A DNA stretch of 64,000 nt from Octopus vulgaris. Its lineage: Eukaryota. A model generated the notes under the pieces. The model saw only the letters and a program-made list of their open reading frames with translations, searched no databases and was not told where the DNA came from. The DNA lies in contig OX597823.1 of assembly GCA_951406725.2 (NCBI GenBank), positions 15,748,001-15,812,000 on the forward strand, in the 5' to 3' direction. Shown piece by piece: positions 8,544 to 64,000 of this stretch; position 1 is the stretch's first letter, and each line of letters begins with the position of its first letter. The translations under genes were made by a program, and so were the position numbers.

Positions 8544-9443
8544 TTTATATTCTTTATCCCGTCTGTCTTGATAGACAATGGGTTGCGCCAAGGGTGGGGC
8601 CTACTTTGATGATGTGCAGCGTCTGCTGTGACTGAACAGTCCAATTCTAGAGTGGCAGTCCTTGGTACAGTTGCTGCACACGAACATCGATGGGTACGTG
8701 TGGGGTGTTGCTGCAGTTGTCCTCCTCCTGTCCCGCCTGTCCAACCACAGCTGTGCTCTCCTCTCCTCAGCCATGGAAACGCCTTTCCTCACCGTCCGAC
8801 GCCAGGCAGAGCGGTCAGCAGCTGTTTCCTCCCACGTGTCCACACAGATGTTGGCAGTCCTCAGGTCGTGCTTGCACACGTCCCTGTATCGTAGCTGTGG
8901 ACGTCCCTTGGGTCGGGATCCTGTGGTGAGTTCGCTGTACAGGATGTCTTTAGGCATGCGACCGTCCTGCATGCGGCAGACGTGTCCGAGCCAGCGCAGT
9001 CGTCTCTGCACAAGGAGGGCATACATGCTTGGCATATTAGTCCGTTCCAGGATGACTCCGTTTGGTACTCGGTCCTTCCAGGAGATGCCAAGGATCCGTC
9101 GAAGACACCGCATGTGGAAGCCGCTGAGGCAGCATTCCTGCCGGGTGTATGTTGTCCAGCTCTCGCTGCCATAGAGTAGGGTGCTCAGCACGCAGGCTCG
9201 GTACACTGCGATCTTGGTGGTTATTGTGAGCATGTTGTTTTCCTACACTCTCCTGGAGAGCTTAGCCATGGCAGCAGCAGCCTTCCCAATCCATCTGTTC
9301 AGCTCCGGCTCGAGGGACAGGCTGCTGGAGACCGTCGATCCCAGGTAAGTGAACTCGTTCACCACCTGCAAGCTGTGGTCGCTGACACTGATGCTGGGGA
9401 CCCCTCCGAAGTCCTGGCCCATGATCTCTGTCTTTTTCAGTCT
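8541..9443 (-). mobile_element. 5'-truncated RTE-clade LINE (RT C-terminus plus terminal zinc finger), relatively young
   Basis: LKKTEIMGQD...FTYLGS...VLSTLLYGSESWTTY...RLRWLGHVCRM...GRPQLRYRD...[17 protein letters not shown]. In-frame TAG at 9243-9245; (ATAAAGAAT) tail. Confidence 0.93.
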
Positions 9444-13315: not shown

Positions 13316-14719
13316 AGAAATATATTCACAAACATACACTTAAGAAAATCTCTATAAGAGACGAAAACAGTATCTATACTGAAAAGCAATGTTTATTGCC
13401 ATCTATATATGGGTGTTCTCTAAAAACCAACAATACTGCTATTTTAACCCCAGGAGGATGCCTTCTTCAGCTGGTTACCCAGTATGTTTTGCACTCAATA
13501 TATATTGCAAGTGGGGAGACAACTCCCTTCTATCCCCGCATTCAAGACCATCAGACCATGCTGTTTCGACCTTATTATGGTCATCCTCAGTGATGGATAC
13601 TTGTCTGCTAGACATAGCAGTAGTTAACCCCAGCTTGCATTATATAGAAAATAAGTGACACACAGTCTTTGATTTTGCAACAAGCAAATTACCTCATTAA
13701 GAAAATCTCTATAAGAGATGAAAGCAGTGTCTTTTTTGAGAATTACATACACTTAAGGTTTTCTATTCATTCTGATTATTACCATCTTCTCAGTCAGTTG
13801 TAGATTCTTTGATCACTGTGCATCTCAATCCTTGATGTACAGCTTCAGTTACAAGTAAGATGTGTAAATGTTTTTATTGGAGAGGCCAGATCTCACTCTG
13901 CCTGCATGTATGCCTCTTTTTACATTTCTGGGTATACTGAGCACATTTTACATCCATATCTCCAATTTCCCTTCAATAGAGAAATCAGCAAAGTGAATGT
14001 CAGATAGCAATATTTTCCATTCTTGAAAGATTTATCTTTCATTTCTCCAAAGTGTCTTTGAGCTGATCTTTAAACAGCTTCTTTGGTCCTCCAGCTAGAT
14101 GTTGACTATAGTGTAGCCAACCATAGAAGATCCTATGTAGAAGACTTGTATCAGAGATGTGTTCTATGTCTGAGCCATCTCAGAAGATTCATATAAAATG
14201 TGGATTCAATGTTGCTGGTGTTTATTTACCAGATTTCATCCTCCTCCTCCTCATCATCATCCTTGTCATCATTTAAGATCTACTTTACCATACTTGTATG
14301 GGTTAGACAGAATTTATTGAATTTATTTTTTCTGTGGCTGGATGCCCTTCCAGTTACCAACACTCATTTGTTTCTAAGCAGAGTAATATTTCTCCATGAC
14401 CAGGCATGTTTGTCACAGAAGACTAAAAATGAATAACATTGCTTGTATGACAGTGATGCTTATATATAAGCGTTACATGATATCAAAACAAAGGTATACA
14501 CACACACACACACACACACTTAATGGTCTTCTTCCACTTAATGGTCTTCTTAATAGCCCAAGACTATAGTAGAAGACACTTGCCCAAGATGCCATACAAT
14601 CGAACCAAATCTAAAGCCCTGTGGTTGGGAAGTACACAGCAATGATTGCACCTACATTTGTGTGTGTAATCCTTCTTTGCTAGGTATCTGAAAGTGTATT
14701 TAGCTAATACTGAATGTTA

Positions 14720-31046: not shown

Positions 31047-31671
31047 ATATGTGTGCGTGTTTTATTCAAAATATGAACAGGAATATAGTTAACGAAAGGA
31101 AAACAAGAAAACAAAAAACAGGAAAAAGAAAGGGCGAAAGACAAAATAACATCAATGCAACATCAAGTGCTTCAATTGGCTGCTCACCCCAAGGTTGAAT
31201 GGAACCTACTGAAGCAAGCCAGCACGCTTGTGGCATTACCACGAATGATGGTGAGGCTAAGGCATTAGAAAAGCCAAGCACCCTCATGGGCATCACCAGT
31301 TACTCCAGTGAGGCGAGTTGCCAATGGTAACAAGAACTTTGCTGTTAGCAGCCAAGTTCTTCCGAACGTCTCAGATGCCACAGGCTGGAAGAGATAGTTC
31401 ACTGCCAGGCTCCGATACTTCAGGGTTTTCTACTGACTTTATCAACTCAGAAAGAATGGAAGATATTCTTATATTTGATGGCAATCCAATTACAACCATC
31501 ATATCTTTTTAGGGTTATCTGGAACAACATTATCTAATGTAATGTAACATATCCATTTTTTTAAAGATCTAATGTGATTTGAGGAGGATTTGGCTGCTAT
31601 TTCTTTCAGATCAAGCCACCATGTAAAGACATTCTCATTTATTAATGTTTATATTCATGTATGGTATATTA

Positions 31672-31983
31672 ATTTCACCAATGGAGAAGTTCTTAAGCAG
31701 ATCAGGCCGAAAATGTCGCTAGAAGCTAGGATCACCAAGCATAGATTGGCATATTTTGGTCATATTATGCAGAGAAAATCCCTGGAGAAGGACATCATGC
31801 TCGGAATGGTCAGTGGCAAGAGAGGAAGAGGCCGACCAAGAACCCACTGGCTTGACACCATCAAGAGTGATACCGGAATGGACATAGCCAATCTGAAAGA
31901 AGCGGCCCAGGATAGAACTGACTGGAGGACACTGATCCATCGAGTAACTGAGAGTCGACTTCGACTGAGCGGATAGAGAGAGA
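31672..31983 (+). mobile_element. BovB-like RTE LINE 3' end
   Basis: SLEARITKHRLAYFGHIMQRKSLEKDIMLGMVSGKRGRGRPRTHWLD...WRTLIHRVTESRLRLSG* followed by a (GA)n tail. Confidence 0.88.
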
Positions 31984-49375: not shown

Positions 49376-49527
49376 TAAGGTCGATGGCTATGGGTTTGAA
49401 CGTTCAGATAGTTTCGACTATGGACTCAATAGTGAATTTGTATCAACTTATAAACCCATCTTAGAGCGACGAAACAAGCGATGGAACGACTCAGTTCCCA
49501 ACTCAAAAGTTCCCCACAACAGAAAAA
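49376..49527 (+). CDS. GRTP1: GRTP1/TBC1D6-like coding exon 2 (152 nt)
   Basis: Acceptor tttctttctcttttccag|, donor A|gtaagg. Translates to (S)KVDGYGFERSDSFDYGLNSEFVSTYKPILERRNKRWNDSVPNSKVPHNRK, which matches the vertebrate GRTP1 N-terminus as I recall it (RIDPYGFERPEDFD...YLVTLTRRAIKW). Confidence 0.92.
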
Positions 49528-53088: not shown

Positions 53089-56000
53089 CTTGGCTTGTTG
53101 ACAGGGGATGCAGGTCTTGGTCCACTCCCCAATTTGTTTGGCCATACTGTGCCAGATAAATTTGCTTGACAGCAAGTGCTGTGTGGCTCTAGTACCTGGG
53201 TGGTACGGTCTGTGAATGATGTTAAAAACCTTCCTGCGCCAGGATAATGGGATGATCGGTCATGGATTCCCAATGAATACATCATATAGTAGAGTTGTGC
53301 CATTGGAGCCGAAGTACACATCCTGCAAGGAAAGTGACATGATGGTAGTGTGGTATGCCCTGATCTCGTCATCTGTCTGTTGGGCTACAGTCATAGCCTT
53401 GTTATCCAGGCCTTCTGCTATTGGGGCTAGGTAGGTGTGAGAGCAGGTAAGGACACAAGAGAGTGTGTCAGCGACTGGATTGCCTTTTCTGGCTATGTGT
53501 TGGATGGCCGTGGTGTATTCAGATGTCCGTTGTGTACTCAGATGTCATTGCTGGCATGCAGACCAAGGCTTTGAGAGCTCATAGGAAAGGTGAGTGATTT
53601 GTGGTCTGTGAACACTGTAAATTTGTGGCCTTCAAGAAAATGGCAAAAGTGGCAGACATCTAGATGGACAGCTAGCAGTTCCCTGTCAAAAGCACTGTAC
53701 TTCTGTTCAGGAGGTCAATGTTGTTGACTGAAGAAAGCAAGTGATCACCACTGGCCATTGATGCATTGTTCCAAAACACCTTCAATGGCTGTGTTGGAGG
53801 CATCATCTGTGAGTACAGTCCAAGATGCCATATGAGGATGGAACAGCATGACTACTTTAGCATGGCTGCTTGTTTTGTGGATTTGAAGGCTGAGGTCATT
53901 GCACCATCCCACTTCATCTGTCCTTTTGAACCATCTTTTGACAGTGCCTTGTATAGGGGTCTCATCACTCTTGCTGCAGAAGAGATGAAGCAATGGTAAA
54001 AGTTTATCATGCCCAGAAATTGGTGTAGAGCCTTGCTTGTGGTGGGGGTGTGGAAAGGATAAGATAGCTTTCGCTTTTTCTGACAGGGGTGTAGCACCAA
54101 CACCTGTGATTCAATGTCACAGGAAGTTGATATCAGTGACACCAAAAGCACACTTGGTGGGGTTGATTACTAGGCCATACTGTTCCAGTCTATCAAAAAG
54201 AGTCACTAGGTGGTTCTTGTGTTGCTCCAATTTTGGCTTGCAATGAGGATATTATTTAAAAAGGCAAATACAAAATCAAGACCCCTGCACATGGTGTCCA
54301 TCAAACGTTGGAAGGATTGTGCTGCATTTTTCACGCTATAGGGTGTACATAGGAATTCATACAACCTGAAAGAGGTGATCACAGCAGTTTTCAGTACATC
54401 GTCGTCTTGTACTGGTATTTGGTGGTAACCTCAGATGAGGTTGACCTTTGAGAAAACCAAGCACATGGCTAGCTGGGCAGCGAAGTCCTGTATGTGTGGA
54501 ATGAGGTAGCAGTCGAGTATCATGTCTGCATTGAGACGGTGGTAATATCTGCATGATTACCAACCACCATTGAGTTTCGAGGCCACATGCAGGTGTTGAC
54601 AACCAGGGACTGCTTGATCAGCAAACTATGCCCAAGGGCTCCATATTGTCAAACTTGGCCTTTGCAATAGCAAGTTTGTCTGGCAACAGACGATGTGTGT
54701 GACTGTGAACTAGCGGGGGGGGCAGTGATGGGCATGTGGTGTGTCGCTCTGTGGTGTGCTGTAGGTTTAGAGAATGTCGGAGTAATGAGATTGGGTGACT
54801 CACAAGGAGATTTGAGAATTCGTTTTCGGTCTGAGAGACGGTCGCTATGTGGTATGTGCAGATGTTTCCAGAGACATGGAAGCGTGTGTGCTGCTGTTGA
54901 TGAGTTATCTCCCCTGCAAATCAATCAGTAGCAAGTGTGCTCGAAAACTGTTTGCCCCAAGAATCGGCTGATGGACATCGGCGATAGTGAATGCCCATGT
55001 GTATTTTTGTGAGTCGATGTTGAGAGAAAGAATGTGGTGACCGTACACATCAATTGTAGAACCATTGGCATCTGTTAAAGGTTGGCCCTGCTTTCCTTAA
55101 CGGAGGTCTCTTACCAATGCTAGGATCACACTGACTTCTGTTCCTGTGTCAATGAAAAACCTACATCTGTAGCTCTGGACATAGAGAAGCAGTTGATCGT
55201 GTCTGCCAACCACCAAGGTATTCAATGGTGGCCGGCCTTGGAGTTTCCTGGGGCTAATGGCCGAGGGATCCTGAAATTATATGGTTGTTTGCACTTCGTA
55301 GCCTTTCCCCCAAACTTGTGTAGAAGCACAGGTCATCTTGCTTAACTCTACCATGATTCGGGGCTCACCCTATGATGTTGACCATAACACCATGGGATAA
55401 AAAATATTTGTTGGCTGCTTTTGCTAACTGCCGCAGGTCCTTGATCTCGGTCTGAGTTATGAGGGCTTGGACCTGGGGTGGTAACTGGAGGAATATTTCC
55501 CTAAACAAAAAGGAAGGTAACTCACTAGGAGGAACTAATGCCAACATCTTGCCCATCAACTCTGAAGGCTTAGAATCAGCTAATTCTTCCTCCAATATCT
55601 TGGCTGCCACTTCCCAGTTGCTCCACCAGAATGTATCCACCAGCTTGTCTTTTAACACGGTGTATGTATTTGTGTGTTGCTGGGGGGTTGGGTTAACATG
55701 TCTAGCACCCTCGTTGCTGTGTCCTCATCTAGTGCCACTACTACGTATGAATATTTCGTTAGGTCAGAAGTTATTTTGCATATGTTAAATTGTGCTTCTG
55801 TTGGGTGAATCATAACTCAGCCCACTTTGGCCAGAATTGTTGTAGCTTCAGTGTTGTTGCGTGATTGCTTGCTACATTTCTTTGATTTTCTGTTTACTTC
55901 GATGTGCAAAGCAAAAGCTGTTGTTCTTCTGTGAGGTCACTAATTATAGCTTTAATTAAGCTATACACAAATAAATTATGGAGACCTAGAATGCGTTAGT

Positions 56001-56817: not shown

Positions 56818-56864
56818 TGAAACGCTTCTGTCGGAAAGGAATACCAAATGAATATCGGGCAACA
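56818..56864 (+). CDS. GRTP1: GRTP1/TBC1D6-like coding exon 3 (47 nt), start of the TBC domain
   Basis: Acceptor tttcacctatttcag|, donor ACA|gtaagt. Phase matches exon 2 (A+TG). Encodes MKRFCRKGIPNEYRAT, the TBC 'KR..RKG(I/V)P...R' motif. Confidence 0.92.
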
Positions 56865-57362: not shown

Positions 57363-58019
57363 TTAATATGAAAAATTTTAATAGAACAACAGTAATTCTA
57401 TTATTAGGTACTGTGATAAACACACATGTGACACCTCGAGAGTTTCTATTACCAAGCTTTGGTTTAACCAAATTCTTGTGAGTGAAATTTTGCAGATAGG
57501 AATTGTGTGAAAGCTCCTTGCTGGGTATGTTCCTGCACATGGGTAGCAGACTTAATCCTTTATCTGGTTTAATAGCACCACCTAATTCTGGGGGTCTTTA
57601 AGTTGGCTTTGTTGCAAGCACTCAAGCCAAGCTTCTGGTTTGTGGATAATGTCCTTTCTTCTTCTACCAGTGACAGGGGCACTGAAAAAGGAGTTATAGA
57701 TGCTGCCCTTTTTTTTAAATTTCATAGAAATTAAAAAAAAATCGTACATGAAATGTCTTTTATAGTTCTTAACCTTTCCATAGCCATATTTCTAATGAAA
57801 TGCACTGATTTTGTGTTCCAATTAATTTTGAAAATCAGGAATTTTAGAGGATTTAATAAAATAAATAACTTTTCTTATTAAGCTGGTGTTTCAAACATAA
57901 ATGGTTTTTTGATAAAATTATGATGTGAGATTTTAATTTTAATATTATCATGTTATAAAGAAGAGGTTTTGTATCACAAAACCAGGGGCAGTCTTGTGTG
58001 GATTTATAAGAAATTTAAT

Positions 58020-60790
58020 GATTTGGTATTGAGGAAAGGGCTGTATTCATGACTTTCATATGTCCTCTGAGATCAGTGAAATCAGTGTGGTTGATGTTCT
58101 TTTTGAATAGCTATGAGCTGATGAGCATAGATGGCAGGAAAGAAATTCTAGAAGATAAGGTTGTTGGTGGAAGGCCCGCAAGTGGGCATTGGACAGGCTG
58201 ATAAAAAGAGGAAATACAAATAGGTAAAGAAAGTCTGAGTGGAAGGGAAATAAGACCACCAGCTTTAAAGGAGCAGAGGCCACTGTAGTAGTGATAGAAG
58301 AGGCAGTATTCCATCTGTAGAATAGAGGCTGGAATGTTTTGAAGAATAACTTCATGCTAATCAGTTGGGTGTCCCACCCCCAACTTTTTTTTCCTATGTG
58401 GTGTCTGATGTCTGTATGTTTGTATGGGAGCAGCACTGTCTTAAATGTAAGAGCAGTACTCCATTGTTGGTTTGACTTTGTGTAGCATGAGTAAATAATT
58501 ATGATCTGAAGTATTTTCTGGCTTTGAAAAGTTCGGTTAGACTTTGCTATGTTGAGGATGTGAGATCATCTGGAGAGAACATCATGGATGATGAGGCTGA
58601 GGATTTGCAGTGACTTTGAGGCTTCTAGATGAATGTTGTTCATGTTTAAAATGTGTGTGGGATGGGGTATAGTATTGTTTTCTTTATGTGTGTAGTGATT
58701 GTGCTTTTGTACTTTTGAAGGAAACATGACCCCCATGAGAGAAGATTTGTGATCTTTGTTCATGGTATCAATACAGGCTTAGTGTCAGGTATCTTGGTTG
58801 TATGTGGATAATGCTTGGATATGGAAGGTTAGGGAAGAGAGAATAGTGGTGTCGTCAGCATAGGAGAGGGTGTTGATAAAGTGTCTCTCAGAGAGAGTTT
58901 CCTCAGCACATGATGCAATGATGTGACTGACAAGAAGCCACTGATCCAGGATATGAGATACTAATAGACCCTTTAGGCAGGTAATTTAGATAAGAGATTC
59001 ATATTCCAGAAAATGGTTTTATACTTAGCTTTTCTCAAGTGCACAACATTACTTCCCCTAAATTTCTGAAGGGCAAGGGTCACTGGGGAATAATGTAACA
59101 AAGTAAGCCTCCTGTTGATCTTGGCTTTACATAACTTATGTACTGATGATCTTTAAAGCTTGTGAGGTATTCAGCTTGTCAAACAATGTGGTTGTCAATG
59201 AATGTCTTTTATTGGAGCTTTTGTGGCTATGGTCTTGTACCAGCTGCATAGTTTGTCAGCCTATGCGCAGGATACTTTTATGAGACACCACTTGTGTAGA
59301 TGGCTATTGGCTCATAATGAGCTCAACTGTCCATTGCTAGGTCCTGTTTTTAGTCCTGCAGAGTCTTCCACAACACCTGGCAAACCAGATAGGGAAGCTG
59401 GTTTAGTCACCATGGGAATGTTAAAGTCTGATAGTTAGACCTGCATAACATATGTCCTTGAGAACCTCTGTTGGACACAGGAATGTGCATTGTCTCAGAG
59501 TTCACACAGCCTGGAGGGAAATTTGCTCTTGAGTTGGAGTCAACATCCATGAGTGATAAGTGTAGACTAAAGAAGAAAAATAAATGTCCATCTCTCCTCA
59601 TATGTTGGAAGTAGGAGCAATAGAGTGTTAGTTGGTGAAGTCGAAGGAGTTTCCCTTCTTAGGAATGGGATACAATGTAGCATGCATTGAAAGATTGAGA
59701 TAGATCTCTACAGAAGGAGAAAGATTGAAAAGTTTGGTGAGAAAGATCTCTGGTGTACAGTATTTGAGGGTAATAACGAAAGGGGCATTGTCAGGGCTAG
59801 TGGTTTCATTGGTTTAAAGCAACTGGAATTACTACAGTGTTTGGTATCCCATCTTGGATGACTGGGTAGGATAGTTTTGGTGAAGATTTTCCCAGTCTGT
59901 GCAGTGTGGTGCAAATGTTGATGATTGCCTTGTGGGAGTACGTCTTACAGAACCTTCATGGTTGAGAAGGAAAGGAAAGAGGGGCTGAATAAAGTTAATA
60001 TGCTTTTGTCATTGGTCTAAAAAGAACATGGCTGCAGTTTGGGAGACAGGAAAGCAAGCTTCCAGGCTATGCAATGTATGGAATTATTTGCATTTCAGTT
60101 GATAGCCTTGTAGAAGTTGCAGTGGTAGGTAAAAACCATCAAATTTGCAGAACAGGTGATTCATAGATTTTGTTGTTTGCCTGAAATGCTGCAGTGAAAT
60201 TAGGAGAGTGAACTACTTGGTGTATATAGTGTTTTGAGTGTCTTGTGTGTATTGGATGCAAAAAGTCATGCCTAAGAAGATGGTTTCAATCACTTTCAGT
60301 GCTTTCTCTGACAGGTCAAAGGTGAAGTACATCTACTGCTAGGGAGTTACCATAGAACTAGCAGAGCTCCAACCAATCAGCTAATTCAGTGTTATAGGGT
60401 CCAGGAATAAGTGTTATGTAATTGTGTGGTTGGTTGAGTCAAGGCATTGATTGGATGACCTAATAATTGCAGAGAATCTGATGGACTGGCAGAGGCTAGA
60501 TTTGGACATAAAAAGAGAGTGGTTTTATATTCGATAGGGATTCATCTAGGAGAAGGAACTAATTGCTGCAAAGAGTGAATGTTTTCAAAAGATTCAGTTT
60601 TTTCACTAGCAACATCAGTGTGGTGTGGGAAGAGATTGAGAGTCAGAAAGTGTTGTGAGAATTGAAGTTACTGGGTATGATGGCTTCAGAGATGGCACAG
60701 CATAGATGGGTTGTAGGTAAAGTGTGAGAGATTTGTGCCTCTGAGTGGAACAAGACATATGGTTTATTTGTTAGTGGAGGTAATGTGTAG
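58020..60790 (-). mobile_element. Heavily decayed CR1/Jockey-group LINE (EN+RT)
   Basis: Minus strand SYADDTTIL (58851-58865 region) and PIPKKGNSFDFTN*HSIAPTS (compare PxPKKG...NYRPIAL); C-terminal LFKKNIN. Confidence 0.75.
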
Positions 60791-61207
60791 AATCTAGTAT
60801 TGTATCATAAGAGTTGATATTTGCGTACTAGTTGCATGAAAAACTGCTGCTCCAGTTCAACTAATTTAAACTCTATTTGAATTTTTAATATTTTATATAA
60901 ACTTATAATTTTATTGTTATAAAATTTTGACTTTTCCCTGATTTTTCATTGAACTTTCTCTCTTTTAATTCGAGTTTTCCCCCTTGCTAATATAAGAAAA
61001 ACATTAAAAAAACAATTGTGAACAAAAGAATAAATACAATGATTTTTATTCATTTATTTTTGATTATTTTGGAGATGTACTTGCATAGCAAGTGCTTTGA
61101 TCTGAGATCGTGTGCTGAAACGAAAACAATTGCAGCGTGGAAGGTGTTTGTAAGCCGTTTAAGAAACACACAAAAGCCGTTCGATTCACTTCAACATTTA
61201 AGTTTAA

Positions 61208-61258
61208 TTTGTCAAAATATTTTCGTCGCTTTAAGACCGCGACCTGTTCACTGACAAA
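61208..61258 (-). ncRNA. Mirror copy of the candidate G3-C8 hammerhead (perfect stem II GTCGC/GCGAC)
   Basis: Reverse complement of the left hairpin arm. Confidence 0.62.
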
Positions 61259-61277
61259 AATCCGTGCAGCACAGATT

Positions 61278-61328
61278 TTTGTCAGTGAACAGGTCGCGGT
61301 CTTAAAGCGGCGAAAATATTTTGACAAA
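61278..61328 (+). ncRNA. Candidate minimal hammerhead ribozyme, G3-C8 core variant
   Basis: TTTGTCA-GTGAACA-G-GTCGC-ggtcttaaa-GCGGC-GAAA-ATAT-T-T-TGACAAA: stem I, core, stem II, GAAA, palindromic stem III, UH, stem I'. Confidence 0.62.
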
Positions 61329-61884
61329 TTAAACTTAAATGTTGATTATGTTGATAAAATTGAAAACTGACTTGAAAGAATTATTTCCCTTTAATACTAC
61401 ATCATTAAATATCTTTTTACCAGAAGTTTACCCATGAATCATGATTAAAACATAAAGAAAACAATAGTCTCAGTCTGTTCAACAAGAAGAAGAACAACAA
61501 CAACAGTTACCACTGAAAAGACATGATATATTAGACAATGTAGCCCTAAGTATACTATGTTTTAAAAAACAAAACAAGAGAAAAATACCCCCAAATGTTC
61601 ATGGTTGGAATGCTTTTGGTCATAAGCCATTGGTGATAGGTCTGCTCGATTAGTTCTGAACTTGGACTAAACATTAACAACCACGTAATCTCATTATCAT
61701 TTTCCATTCGTCTTTACGTCCCCGCATGTCAGTTGAATGTCCCCTCTGTATTCAGGCCTTGTGCCTATAATAAAGAGAAAAACCATGTAATTTCAAGTTA
61801 TACTGTTTTCTATCGAGTCACTGCTGTTTAACTTGGAATTAGTTAATGTATAATAGCTGCCAGATACAGTAGGTTAATATATTA

Positions 61885-62165
61885 TAATAATAATAATAAT
61901 GAAATTATTGCATACAGTGCTCAGGTGCACCACAACTTGTCAGAAAGTGCATATAAAGTATATGCAGTAATGTACAAATGTCTGGGAAGTGAACAGTGTA
62001 TGAGTCAGATACATGCTTGCGTGTGTATGGAGGGGAGAAAATCAGGTGTAGTGTTGGCGAATCTCAGAAAGCATGGAAGTTTTGAAGGATGCAGTGTTCC
62101 GACAACTAACAACTGATGCCGGCAGTTTGTTCCATGCTTCAGCAACTCCCAGCGGGAAAAAATGT
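61885..62165 (-). mobile_element. CR1-like LINE 3' end with (TTA)n tail
   Basis: Homologous to 6805-7110; ...VAEAWNKLPASVVSC. Confidence 0.78.
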
Positions 62166-62689
62166 TACTTAGTTCAACCGTGTCTGAGTTAAGCACATTA
62201 TTCATCTTACTTAGGAGTAAATTGGTCAGTACTAAGAAGGGCATTCTGTTGTAAAATTCTTTCACCAAAACCAAGAAGAGAAATCTGAGAGTGCTTTGTT
62301 CCTGCATAGAAAAATATATTTGTAAACAATAGAAATGTGAAAATCACAAAATATTATTTTCCTTGTTTATAATATTTACCTGTATTAGAAATCAGTTCTA
62401 GTTTAGAAGTTGCAATATTTGGGAGGCTAAGGAAATACACTTCTGATCACATGATCTTAGAATCCTAGAACCATTGTGTTATGTGTGTTGTGTCGTTCAG
62501 CAAGGTAGATTCCTTGAATAACAAAATGCCTACACTGTTTTAAAGTTGGGAGGTCATCTAGCTATGAAAACACTTTGCTCAAGCAAATAAATCTTAATAA
62601 AAAATGCTTTAAAAACAGTATATGTGTGTGTGTGAGTGCACACACACACACATACACACACAATTATATAAGTAGAATTTGTTTGTGGC

Positions 62690-63862
62690 AGATATGAAGG
62701 AGCAATAAATAATGAGAGCACACAAGAAAGAGATGTTCCAAAATGTCCAGAAGGCTCCCAAGAAGTAGTAGATAGTTTCAGTTATTTAGGTGACTTAATT
62801 AGCAGTGGAGGAGGATGATCTGAAAGGATAGTTGCTAGAATACAAATTGGTTGGAGAAAGTTCAGAAAACTTTTACCTCTGTTGGTAACAAAATATGTCT
62901 CTCTCAGAATGAAAAGCAGATTGTATTGGTGCCTGTGTATGAACAGCAATGCTACTTGGCTGTGAAACTTGGGCTGTGAATGCAGAGGAAATGTGAAGAC
63001 TTGAAAGAAATGAAACAAGTATGCTCTGATGGATGTGTAATATCAGTATGCATATACAATGAAGTACAAATGTGCTGAGAAAAAAAAATTGGGCGTTAGA
63101 GGCATCAGATGTGGTATGCAGGAGAAATGACTGTGCTGGAATGGTCCCATGATGCAGATGGATGAGGATAGCTCTATATAGGAACCTGTGGAAGAAGTTG
63201 ACCTAGGAAGAACTGAAATGAAATTGTGAAGACTGACCTCAAAATGCTGAGCTTCTCAGAGGAGATGATGAGGGACCAAGATGAGAAGATGCTTGAGAAG
63301 ACCCATCTGTCGCAGCAGAGTTGAAGCTCTGTGAAGCTTTCCCCTACACCTCATCTTCTGACTCCCACTCTTCCACGTTGCTCTATTTTCTTTCACTCGC
63401 CCCTACAATGAACTGATATCATCTACGTATAACTCATTCCCTATCTCTAATTATCTGCCACACTACGTTTTACTCCATGCACTTGCCTACACATTCATCT
63501 TTCCAGATTTACAGTCCTATTCTGTCTCATATTCATGTTATACCTTGACTTCACATCTCTTTCTTTTCTCTGTCCTTCTCTTTCTCAATTTCCAGGTGGA
63601 TAAGCCATGTATTCACTTCCTCAGCAAGACATCTGCTCCTCTCTATAATGGTTTCTTATTCCTCCAGTCTAGTCAGTTGAAGGGCCTTATCTTGCAGGTA
63701 CTTGATAATCTCACTGGTACGAGTGCCACTAAAAAGCACCCAGTACACTTTAAGTGGAAAGGGCATCCTGCTGTAGAAACCATACCAAAACAGAGGGCTT
63801 GTGTGTTCTTATCAAATCATCCAATGCATGCCAGCATGAAAAACAAAGAACATCAAACGATT
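62690..63862 (+). mobile_element. Decayed RTE LINE 3' part ending in a family-D tail
   Basis: DSFSYLGDLISSGGG*SERIVARIQIGWRKFRKLLPLL...GCETWAV...ML*WMCN; pyrimidine-rich UTR; aagggcatcctgctgtagaaac...catccaatgcatgccagcatg. Confidence 0.82.
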
Positions 63863-63873
63863 ATATATGCATA

Positions 63874-64000
63874 CTAGCAGTATCGCCCGGCGTTGCTCGG
63901 GTTTGTAAGGGAAATAACTATATAACCATTTTTAGAGAGTTATAGCCAAAAAATGCATTAAAAATGGAAAAAAAAATGATGGTAAATTTTTTTTTAAATC
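63874..64000 (-). mobile_element. Non-autonomous Helitron 3' end (runs off the window)
   Basis: ctagcagtatcgcccggcgttgctcgggtttgtaaggg, nearly identical to 26785. Confidence 0.87.

Follow-up and report, generated by a model that had tools for sequence, protein, structure and literature searches.

Two head-to-head pseudo-LTR pieces from a young Penelope-like retrotransposon in Octopus vulgaris, and their hammerhead-shaped motif with a G3-C8 core pair

A palindromic insertion in a probable host intron

The window, a 64,000-nt stretch of Octopus vulgaris DNA (contig OX597823.1, positions 15,748,001 to 15,812,000, forward strand), contains a palindrome of two 77-nt arms (61191-61267 and 61269-61345), 97% complementary and spaced by 1 nt, as described in a first-pass annotation made from the letters of the window (features in Table 1). 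The length of 77 bp given there holds for the palindrome; the left arm is a 197-nt antisense copy that reaches 61071 and stops at the usual 3' end of family copies (about 197-200). The two palindrome mismatches fall at element positions 5 and 42, and the start codon of the element ORF (element position 110) reads ACG in the left arm (61158-61156). The word TTGATTAT flanks the whole insertion, at 61060 and 61342. The right arm has TTGA as its 3' end, also the first letters of the target duplication, and from these letters its cDNA was likely primed through TTGA microhomology with the target. Since the window copy is 97-99% identical to dispersed family copies, the insertion is young. The palindrome represents one insertion, in which two pseudo-LTR (pLTR) fragments from a young Penelope-like element (PLE) with RT and GIY-YIG lie head to head, with a duplicated target word on either side.

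Table 1. Features of the insertion and the nearest identified upstream host exon, in window positions
Feature	Positions	Strand	Detail
Closest identified upstream host exon, AG..GT bounded, KRFCRKGIPNEYRAT	56818..56864	+	TBC-domain gene
Left target-site duplication word, TTGATTATTTT	61060..61070	+	
Left arm, pLTR copy, element positions 1-197	61071..61267	-	97.5% identity to copy L009
Mirror copy of the hammerhead motif	61208..61258	-	G3 = 61251, U17 = 61215 (predicted cut after 61215)
TGC, head-to-head junction, in both arms (3-nt microhomology)	61265..61267	.	sequence
Right arm, pLTR positions -3 to 77	61265..61345	+	ends at TTGA
Minimal type I hammerhead motif	61278..61328	+	stem I 7 bp, extra G, stem II 5 bp, GAA, AAUAUU; predicted cut after U17 = 61321
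Right target-site duplication word, TTGATTATGTT	61342..61352	+	exact over 8 nt, 10/11 overall

Exon-like sequence suggests that the insertion is likely intronic in a TBC-domain gene. A second + strand exon-like stretch lies at about 49380-49520, upstream of the insertion, and TBC exons are found beyond the window end by 9-19 kb (G000:C10:15,821,259-15,831,327); one exon expected between the window stretches and these downstream exons was not located, and the first host exon gave no match against ESM Atlas and PDB. The insertion had been assigned to a GRTP1 intron: a place in an intron of a TBC-domain gene is supported by exon-like stretches upstream and TBC exons downstream, and the name GRTP1, given by motifs, is presumptive.

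A hammerhead-shaped motif with a swapped core pair

Each arm carries one copy of the motif. For the + copy, stem I is formed by TTTGTCA (61278-61284) and TGACAAA (61322-61328), and encloses the core GTGAACA (61285-61291, read as G3-U4-G5-A6-A7-C8-A9), an extra G (61292), stem II made of GTCGC (61293-61297) and GCGGC (61307-61311), GAA (61312-61314), the palindromic AATATT (61315-61320) and U17 (61321); stem II of the - copy is GTCGC/GCGAC. Both copies were matched by a descriptor with a free 3-8 pair, which bears out the hammerhead-like layout reported for both strands. Chance matches in dinucleotide-resampled windows numbered 5/100 with a loose descriptor and 0/100 with a strict one (stem I of at least 7, stem II of at least 5, 6-nt palindrome, 3-8 pair free). 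The three-way junction (stems I and II, G10.1-C11.1) is present, as are U4, G5, A6 and A9, G12, A13 and A14, A15.1-U16.1, H17 and a Watson-Crick pair at 3-8 (G-C in family A, the family of the window copy, and C-G in its sister family C); in place of the literal CUGANGA core stands GUGAACA. Stem III, AAUAUU, is a perfect palindrome of the kind that permits dimers, but the twin motifs sit on opposite strands and are therefore unable to dimerise with each other. A search of 58000-64000 against Rfam (E <= 10) returned no hammerhead family, just miRNA-hairpin look-alikes under the gathering score; this negative is uninformative, because canonical motifs in loci L333 and L199 also matched no hammerhead family (E <= 1).

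Family A has at least 6,272 copies, counted as exact matches to a 21-letter pattern (0 control matches), and a separate downstream pattern gave 6,208 matches. The G3-C8 core, proposed at first for the window copy and its family, is the family state: among the first 100 family A matches it was found in 94, beside G3.G8 in 2, G3.U8 in 2, U3.C8 in 1, C3.C8 in 1 and C3-G8 in 0. Family C, an older sister family with a canonical core (L332-L351, e.g. L333:1497-1546, +), gave 273 matches and has the motif CUGAAGA-G-GUCAC..GUGAC-GAAA-GAUUU-C, with C3-G8 in 93 of the first 100. The pLTRs of families A and C can be aligned across all 200 nt, the motif of one falling in register with that of the other; the local score is 104.5, and shuffled sequences reached at most 66.5. 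In family C, A9 is altered in 9 of the first 100 matches. Family B, a very young sister PLE family (L190, L191 and L192, e.g. L192:2151-2198, +), has the motif CUGAUGC, with C3-G8, a change of A9 to C, U17 and a non-palindromic stem III; its copies are 98-99% identical and have full frames of 1,312 codons, and its protein shares 98% identity with a protein named after Octopus vulgaris. For metagenome loci retrieved via protein alignment, a canonical C3-G8 motif, mostly with a 6-nt palindrome, was found in 11 of 78, a twelfth locus gave an A3-U8 match that is probably due to chance, and none of the 78 had G3-C8.

The covariation in stems and core that had been suggested as a check was found, sister family C being C3-G8 with compensated stems. 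Using a 10-row alignment (3 family A, 2 family C, 1 family B and 4 metagenome motifs; author-chosen, few and related rows), both sides change in 9/12 pairs including 3-8, and 93.5% of cells pair, compared with 32-49% in slid controls, on a basis of about three related families and four metagenome motifs, the structure having been read from the same sequences. Within family A (114 arms, 72 sites), all 5 high-frequency, subfamily-diagnostic sites in positions 9-60 lie within the 9-nt loop II (hypergeometric 5e-5, the sites being not independent) and 11 more lie outside the motif; an A56G variant, at 10%, keeps a wobble pair. Subfamilies with different loop II sequences all retain U4, G5, A6, G12-A14, A15.1-U16.1, the palindrome and a non-G at 17. 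Variants with G8 gave 284 pattern matches, and G3.G8 was found in 8/100 copies of the oldest loop class; for a G3.G8 master lineage as an intermediate, comparison of 14 G8 with 52 C8 old arms yielded no convincing common diagnostic site. In old family A copies (L272-L331), the change of C8 to G occurs in 8/100, about four times the background of C to G (10/540 cells, about 2%). Judged by these sequences, the motif is very probably homologous to true hammerheads, with the two letters of one core pair exchanged.

Position 17 is C in family C and U in family A. A C3-G17 trap is described for the hammerhead in PMC3884650, and by analogy U17 may serve family A by avoiding a G3-C17 pair; family B has C3 together with U17. 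The first-pass annotation had called the UUU triplet weak, a concern that was overstated, U17 occurring in about 24 of the 56 Penelope minimal hammerheads of Fig. S3 in PMC4209133 (own count) and UUU in the oyster example. The same 56 motifs have C3, or U3 in 3 rows, and G3 in none, and the natural 3-8 pairs named in the covered parts of PMC4209133 and PMC3088659 are C3-G8 or U3-A8. The U3-A8 covariants given there (Schistosoma Cercyon, PMC4209133; Perreault et al. 2011, PMC3088659) are likewise a natural compensatory change at 3-8, by two transitions, whereas G3-C8 of family A takes two transversions. The covered portions of the reviews PMC6765202, PMC6155905 and PMC8495972 mention no natural G3-C8, and the literature searched, with incomplete coverage of key papers, contained no natural G3-C8 hammerhead and no octopus or cephalopod Penelope hammerhead. 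The study bioRxiv 10.64898/2026.07.22.740005 relies on canonical and minimal descriptors.

Compared with the PLE minimal type I hammerhead, as set out by Cervera & de la Pena 2014 (PMC4209133), the motif shares the location in a pLTR, the extra nucleotide between 9 and 10.1, G10.1-C11.1, a palindromic stem III, a U-rich 5' flank, the common U17, and thousands of solo and opposite-strand copies; it differs in its core GUGAACA, in its extra nucleotide (G, where the consensus has H) and in a palindrome of 6 nt instead of the usual 4.

The element, its insertion geometry and the start of its RNA

Longer family A copies contain an ORF that ends in GIY-YIG, about 1 kb upstream of the motif and on the same strand. 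GIY-YIG (PF01541) was detected in the C-terminal 189 aa at 25.7 bits, above the Pfam cut-off, and the RT motifs DVVSLYPS and YVDD were read directly in frames of 733-1,025 codons; Pfam returned no RT or other family for an 839-aa frame, whose best homologue is a protein named RT-domain. Locus L062 is a partial tandem that runs from 3' UTR through a pLTR with the motif into the ORF, the ATG being element position 110. At this locus, consensus lines from runs X16 and X17 (other-organism labels C and D) contain the GTGAACAG core. The linked RT/GIY-YIG ORF that had been proposed as a check was thus found on the same strand, and the Penelope-type assignment was upheld by the GIY-YIG score, the RT motifs and the pLTR tandem. 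The features of EN+ PLEs are present, namely one ORF coding for both RT and a GIY-YIG endonuclease at its C terminus, partial tandems or pLTRs (L062), inverted 5'-truncated copies (40/71 sites) and a tail (two 3' end classes). The CX2-5CxxC linker of Neptune and Nematis is represented by CQSNCAVC, a motif-level assignment to Neptune or Nematis. The Neptune/Nematis EN+ PLEs of Craig et al. 2021 (PMC8557442) likewise combine RT, this linker and a GIY-YIG at the C terminus with partial tandems and (TA)n targets; they too have copies that are inverted and 5'-truncated, which together with tails are usual in PLEs. The repeat is almost certainly the pLTR of a Penelope-like element, and the X16 and X17 lines give a weak hint that family A may be common to related species. 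A non-LTR retrozyme, consisting of non-coding tandem hammerhead arrays, was rejected, since copies in the sample stand alone, are inverted or are linked to an ORF.

For analysis of insertion geometry, 82 sites were taken from the first 100 matches of the downstream pattern, after merging second members of pairs, and 50/82 were head to head. An identical inverted junction with similar microsatellite flanks was seen at 11/82 sites (L086, L090, L116, L117, L119, L135, L148, L151, L153, L154 and L157), one palindromic copy having been amplified secondarily inside another repeat. After removing 10 repeats of this amplified copy and one duplicated locus, 71 sites remained, of which 40 were head to head and 14 had the whole motif in both arms. 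The twin locked layout, presented earlier as particular to this locus, is therefore the norm: nothing sets the window locus apart from other insertions of the element, and the intronic hairpin is ordinary. Because the geometry is routine, the self-masked hairpin is a by-product and not a host device. That the hairpin is a host-domesticated regulator of the TBC gene intron, as a self-silenced ribozyme switch or an editing substrate under selection, is hardly credible given a young copy (97-99% identity) and the same geometry at 40/71 sites, even though the location is likely intronic, a 77-bp duplex is predicted, and octopuses are a group with heavy A-to-I editing.

Of the 114 arm 3' ends, 62 lay within 192-200 and another 40 within 138-146, forming two main classes; a long and a short end occurred together in 27/40 inverted sites. 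Flank words of at least 10 nt were shared at 34/50 sites, compared with 251/1,000 mismatched controls, which are inflated by TA microsatellites, and the mode of word length was 12 nt. The long ORF-bearing copies show the same inversion. An origin of the palindrome by local inverted duplication or fold-back after insertion, or as a MITE-like unit moved as DNA, would fit the 11/82 sites with one identical inverted junction and similar flanks; it is improbable, as the window junction differs from the amplified one and other junctions are heterogeneous, two staggered 3' ends are preferred, with the same inversion in ORF-bearing copies, and the target duplication flanks the whole unit. Instead, the two staggered 3' ends and inverted copies, which match the descriptions in PMC8557442 and PMC11167929, lead us to infer two-strand priming. 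GIY-YIG would nick both target strands, about 12 nt apart, and each nick would serve as the primer for reverse transcription from a point within the RNA. These points would usually be about 200 and about 142, and are 197 and 77 in the window copy; both cDNAs would then extend to the RNA 5' end and join via short microhomology (here TGC, 61265-61267).

Arm 5' ends (n=114) lay at -11 to -3 in 44 cases, including 32 at -6 to -3, at -2 to 50 in 49, further in for 13 and further upstream for 6, and just 2/114 lay near the predicted cut (51-57). The integrated copies hence came from uncut RNA, given 2/114 arms at the predicted cut against 44 at -11 to -3. Sixty arms with an intact ATGCAGCA start were used for analysis of the start, and 22/60 match the element just as far as the preceding AG. 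An untemplated G (position -7) before this AG was present in 19/22 arms, against a background of 18%, and in 17/20 after dropping arms with a possible partner template; two of the 19 G-bearing arms are one duplicated locus. A G at the break was also seen in 4/4 arms matching to -9 or -10. A reverse-transcribed cap signature is familiar from LINE-1 work, and the untemplated G is likely such a reverse-transcribed cap, marking the start site of the element. On this reading, element RNA would have its capped start 6 nt ahead of ATGCAGC, which lies 59 nt upstream from the predicted cut, and the motif would occupy the 5' UTR, between the capped start and the ORF ATG (position 110). The capped start was preferred over a 3' splice-site reading (CTAAC..TTTCTCAG|ATG), since no common upstream exon was seen in copies starting there; splicing may occur in tandem read-through RNA.

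Compared with the Poseidon element PAc of Anolis (Frangieh et al. 2024, PMC11167929), family A likewise has a hammerhead adjoining the ORF start, a tail that arises from two internal RT starts, cleavage and extension on both target strands, targets rich in AT and an uncut RNA template. The protein of the anole element cleaves both strands, extends them, and primes from two positions within the RNA (PMC11167929). The two elements differ in that the PAc core is C3-G8, C3G/G8C being engineered there, that the PAc ORF starts within stem II and that of family A 57 nt after the predicted cut, and that the tail is about 57 nt in family A and 30-40 in PAc (PMC11167929).

Predicted folding and activity

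In the predicted monomer fold of the motif, G3.U17 lengthens stem I and stem III is absent. The modelled dimer has -25 to -26 kcal/mol, compared with a cofold minimum of -31 to -34, and is thus 5-10 above the minimum. The full insertion folds as a long hairpin at -151.0 kcal/mol, compared with -75.8 with the motif enforced, a penalty on the motif of about 75 kcal/mol in silico. This supports the first-pass annotation in its view that the antisense arm masks the + copy. In RNA spanning the locus, the antisense arm would be transcribed first on either strand and would pair with the motif; as both twins would be masked in this way, neither strand is predicted to fold an active ribozyme, and in these models the motif is likely inert in the window copy.

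For the element RNA, sequence comparison suggests that ribozyme activity is probably weak, dimer- or protein-dependent, or dispensable; weak or dispensable activity is argued by copies that start 59 nt upstream of the cut and by family B, which lacks A9. Catalysis may be dispensable, because the very young family B thrives with C in place of A9 and a non-palindromic stem III. Published Penelope hammerheads cleave poorly even as dimers (PMC4209133). The anole hammerhead requires its protein for cleavage, engineered C3G/G8C partly restores cleavage in it, hammerhead mutations had no effect on in vitro insertion, and no RNA ends were observed at its cut site (PMC11167929). Measurable cleavage of the family A motif, as a dimer or with protein assistance, would on its sequence be slightly more probable than its absence.

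In the same element, the motif could instead descend from a hammerhead, have lost catalysis and be kept as a signal folded in the 5' UTR, for protein binding, promoter or translation control, the 3-8 swap being drift or structural only. This possibility, which we consider credible but less likely than not, agrees with the derivation of copies from uncut, probably capped RNA, with the success of family B despite the loss of A9, with the normal in vitro insertion of the anole mutants and the lack of cut-site RNA ends in the anole element (PMC11167929), and with an active fold that is not the predicted minimum. It accounts less readily for two transversions whose joint effect is to re-form precisely the 3-8 tertiary pair, which plays no part in secondary structure, and for the retention of U4, G5, A6, G12-A14, A15.1-U16.1, the palindrome and non-G17 while loop II diverges. 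The account we prefer, and hold to be likely, is a single head-to-head insertion of two pLTR fragments from a young Penelope-like retrotransposon, each arm with a G3-C8 hammerhead-shaped motif that is likely weakly active and dimer- or protein-dependent in the element RNA and likely inert here. The further proposition that an active animal retrotransposon family has fixed a catalytically competent natural G3-C8 hammerhead, derived from a C3-G8 ancestor via two inactive intermediates with co-adoption of U17, and has seeded > 6,000 CUGANGA-invisible copies, many of them masked by head-to-head integration in host introns, is evenly balanced in our judgement.

The 3-8 pair has been defined by engineered swaps, the sole natural covariant in the partly covered literature being U3-A8. 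A genome in which one whole family has G3-C8 and its sister families have C3-G8 broadens the consensus for natural hammerheads. Hammerhead censuses, and claims of 'no hammerhead' for some Penelope clades, may accordingly undercount; if the motif cuts, it would be a natural ribozyme variant overlooked by standard pattern searches. The G3-C8, canonical and A9-to-C families form a natural test of what Penelope hammerheads do, and the capped-start signal with the staggered 3' ends speaks, at the genomic level, for priming that is internal, involves both strands and uses uncut RNA.

Elsewhere in the window, 13548-13596 on the - strand is a hammerhead motif with the canonical C3-G8 pair that belongs to an unrelated family (stem I CCATCA/TGATGG, CUGAGGA plus U, GACC/GGTC, GUC triplet), and its pattern has one further exact match (G000:C8:42110179). 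Translations inspected by eye revealed a degenerate LTR-retrotransposon pol-like stretch at about 53200-55800 (-) and two LINE RT C-terminal fragments, at 8601-9242 (-) and 31578-31976 (+).
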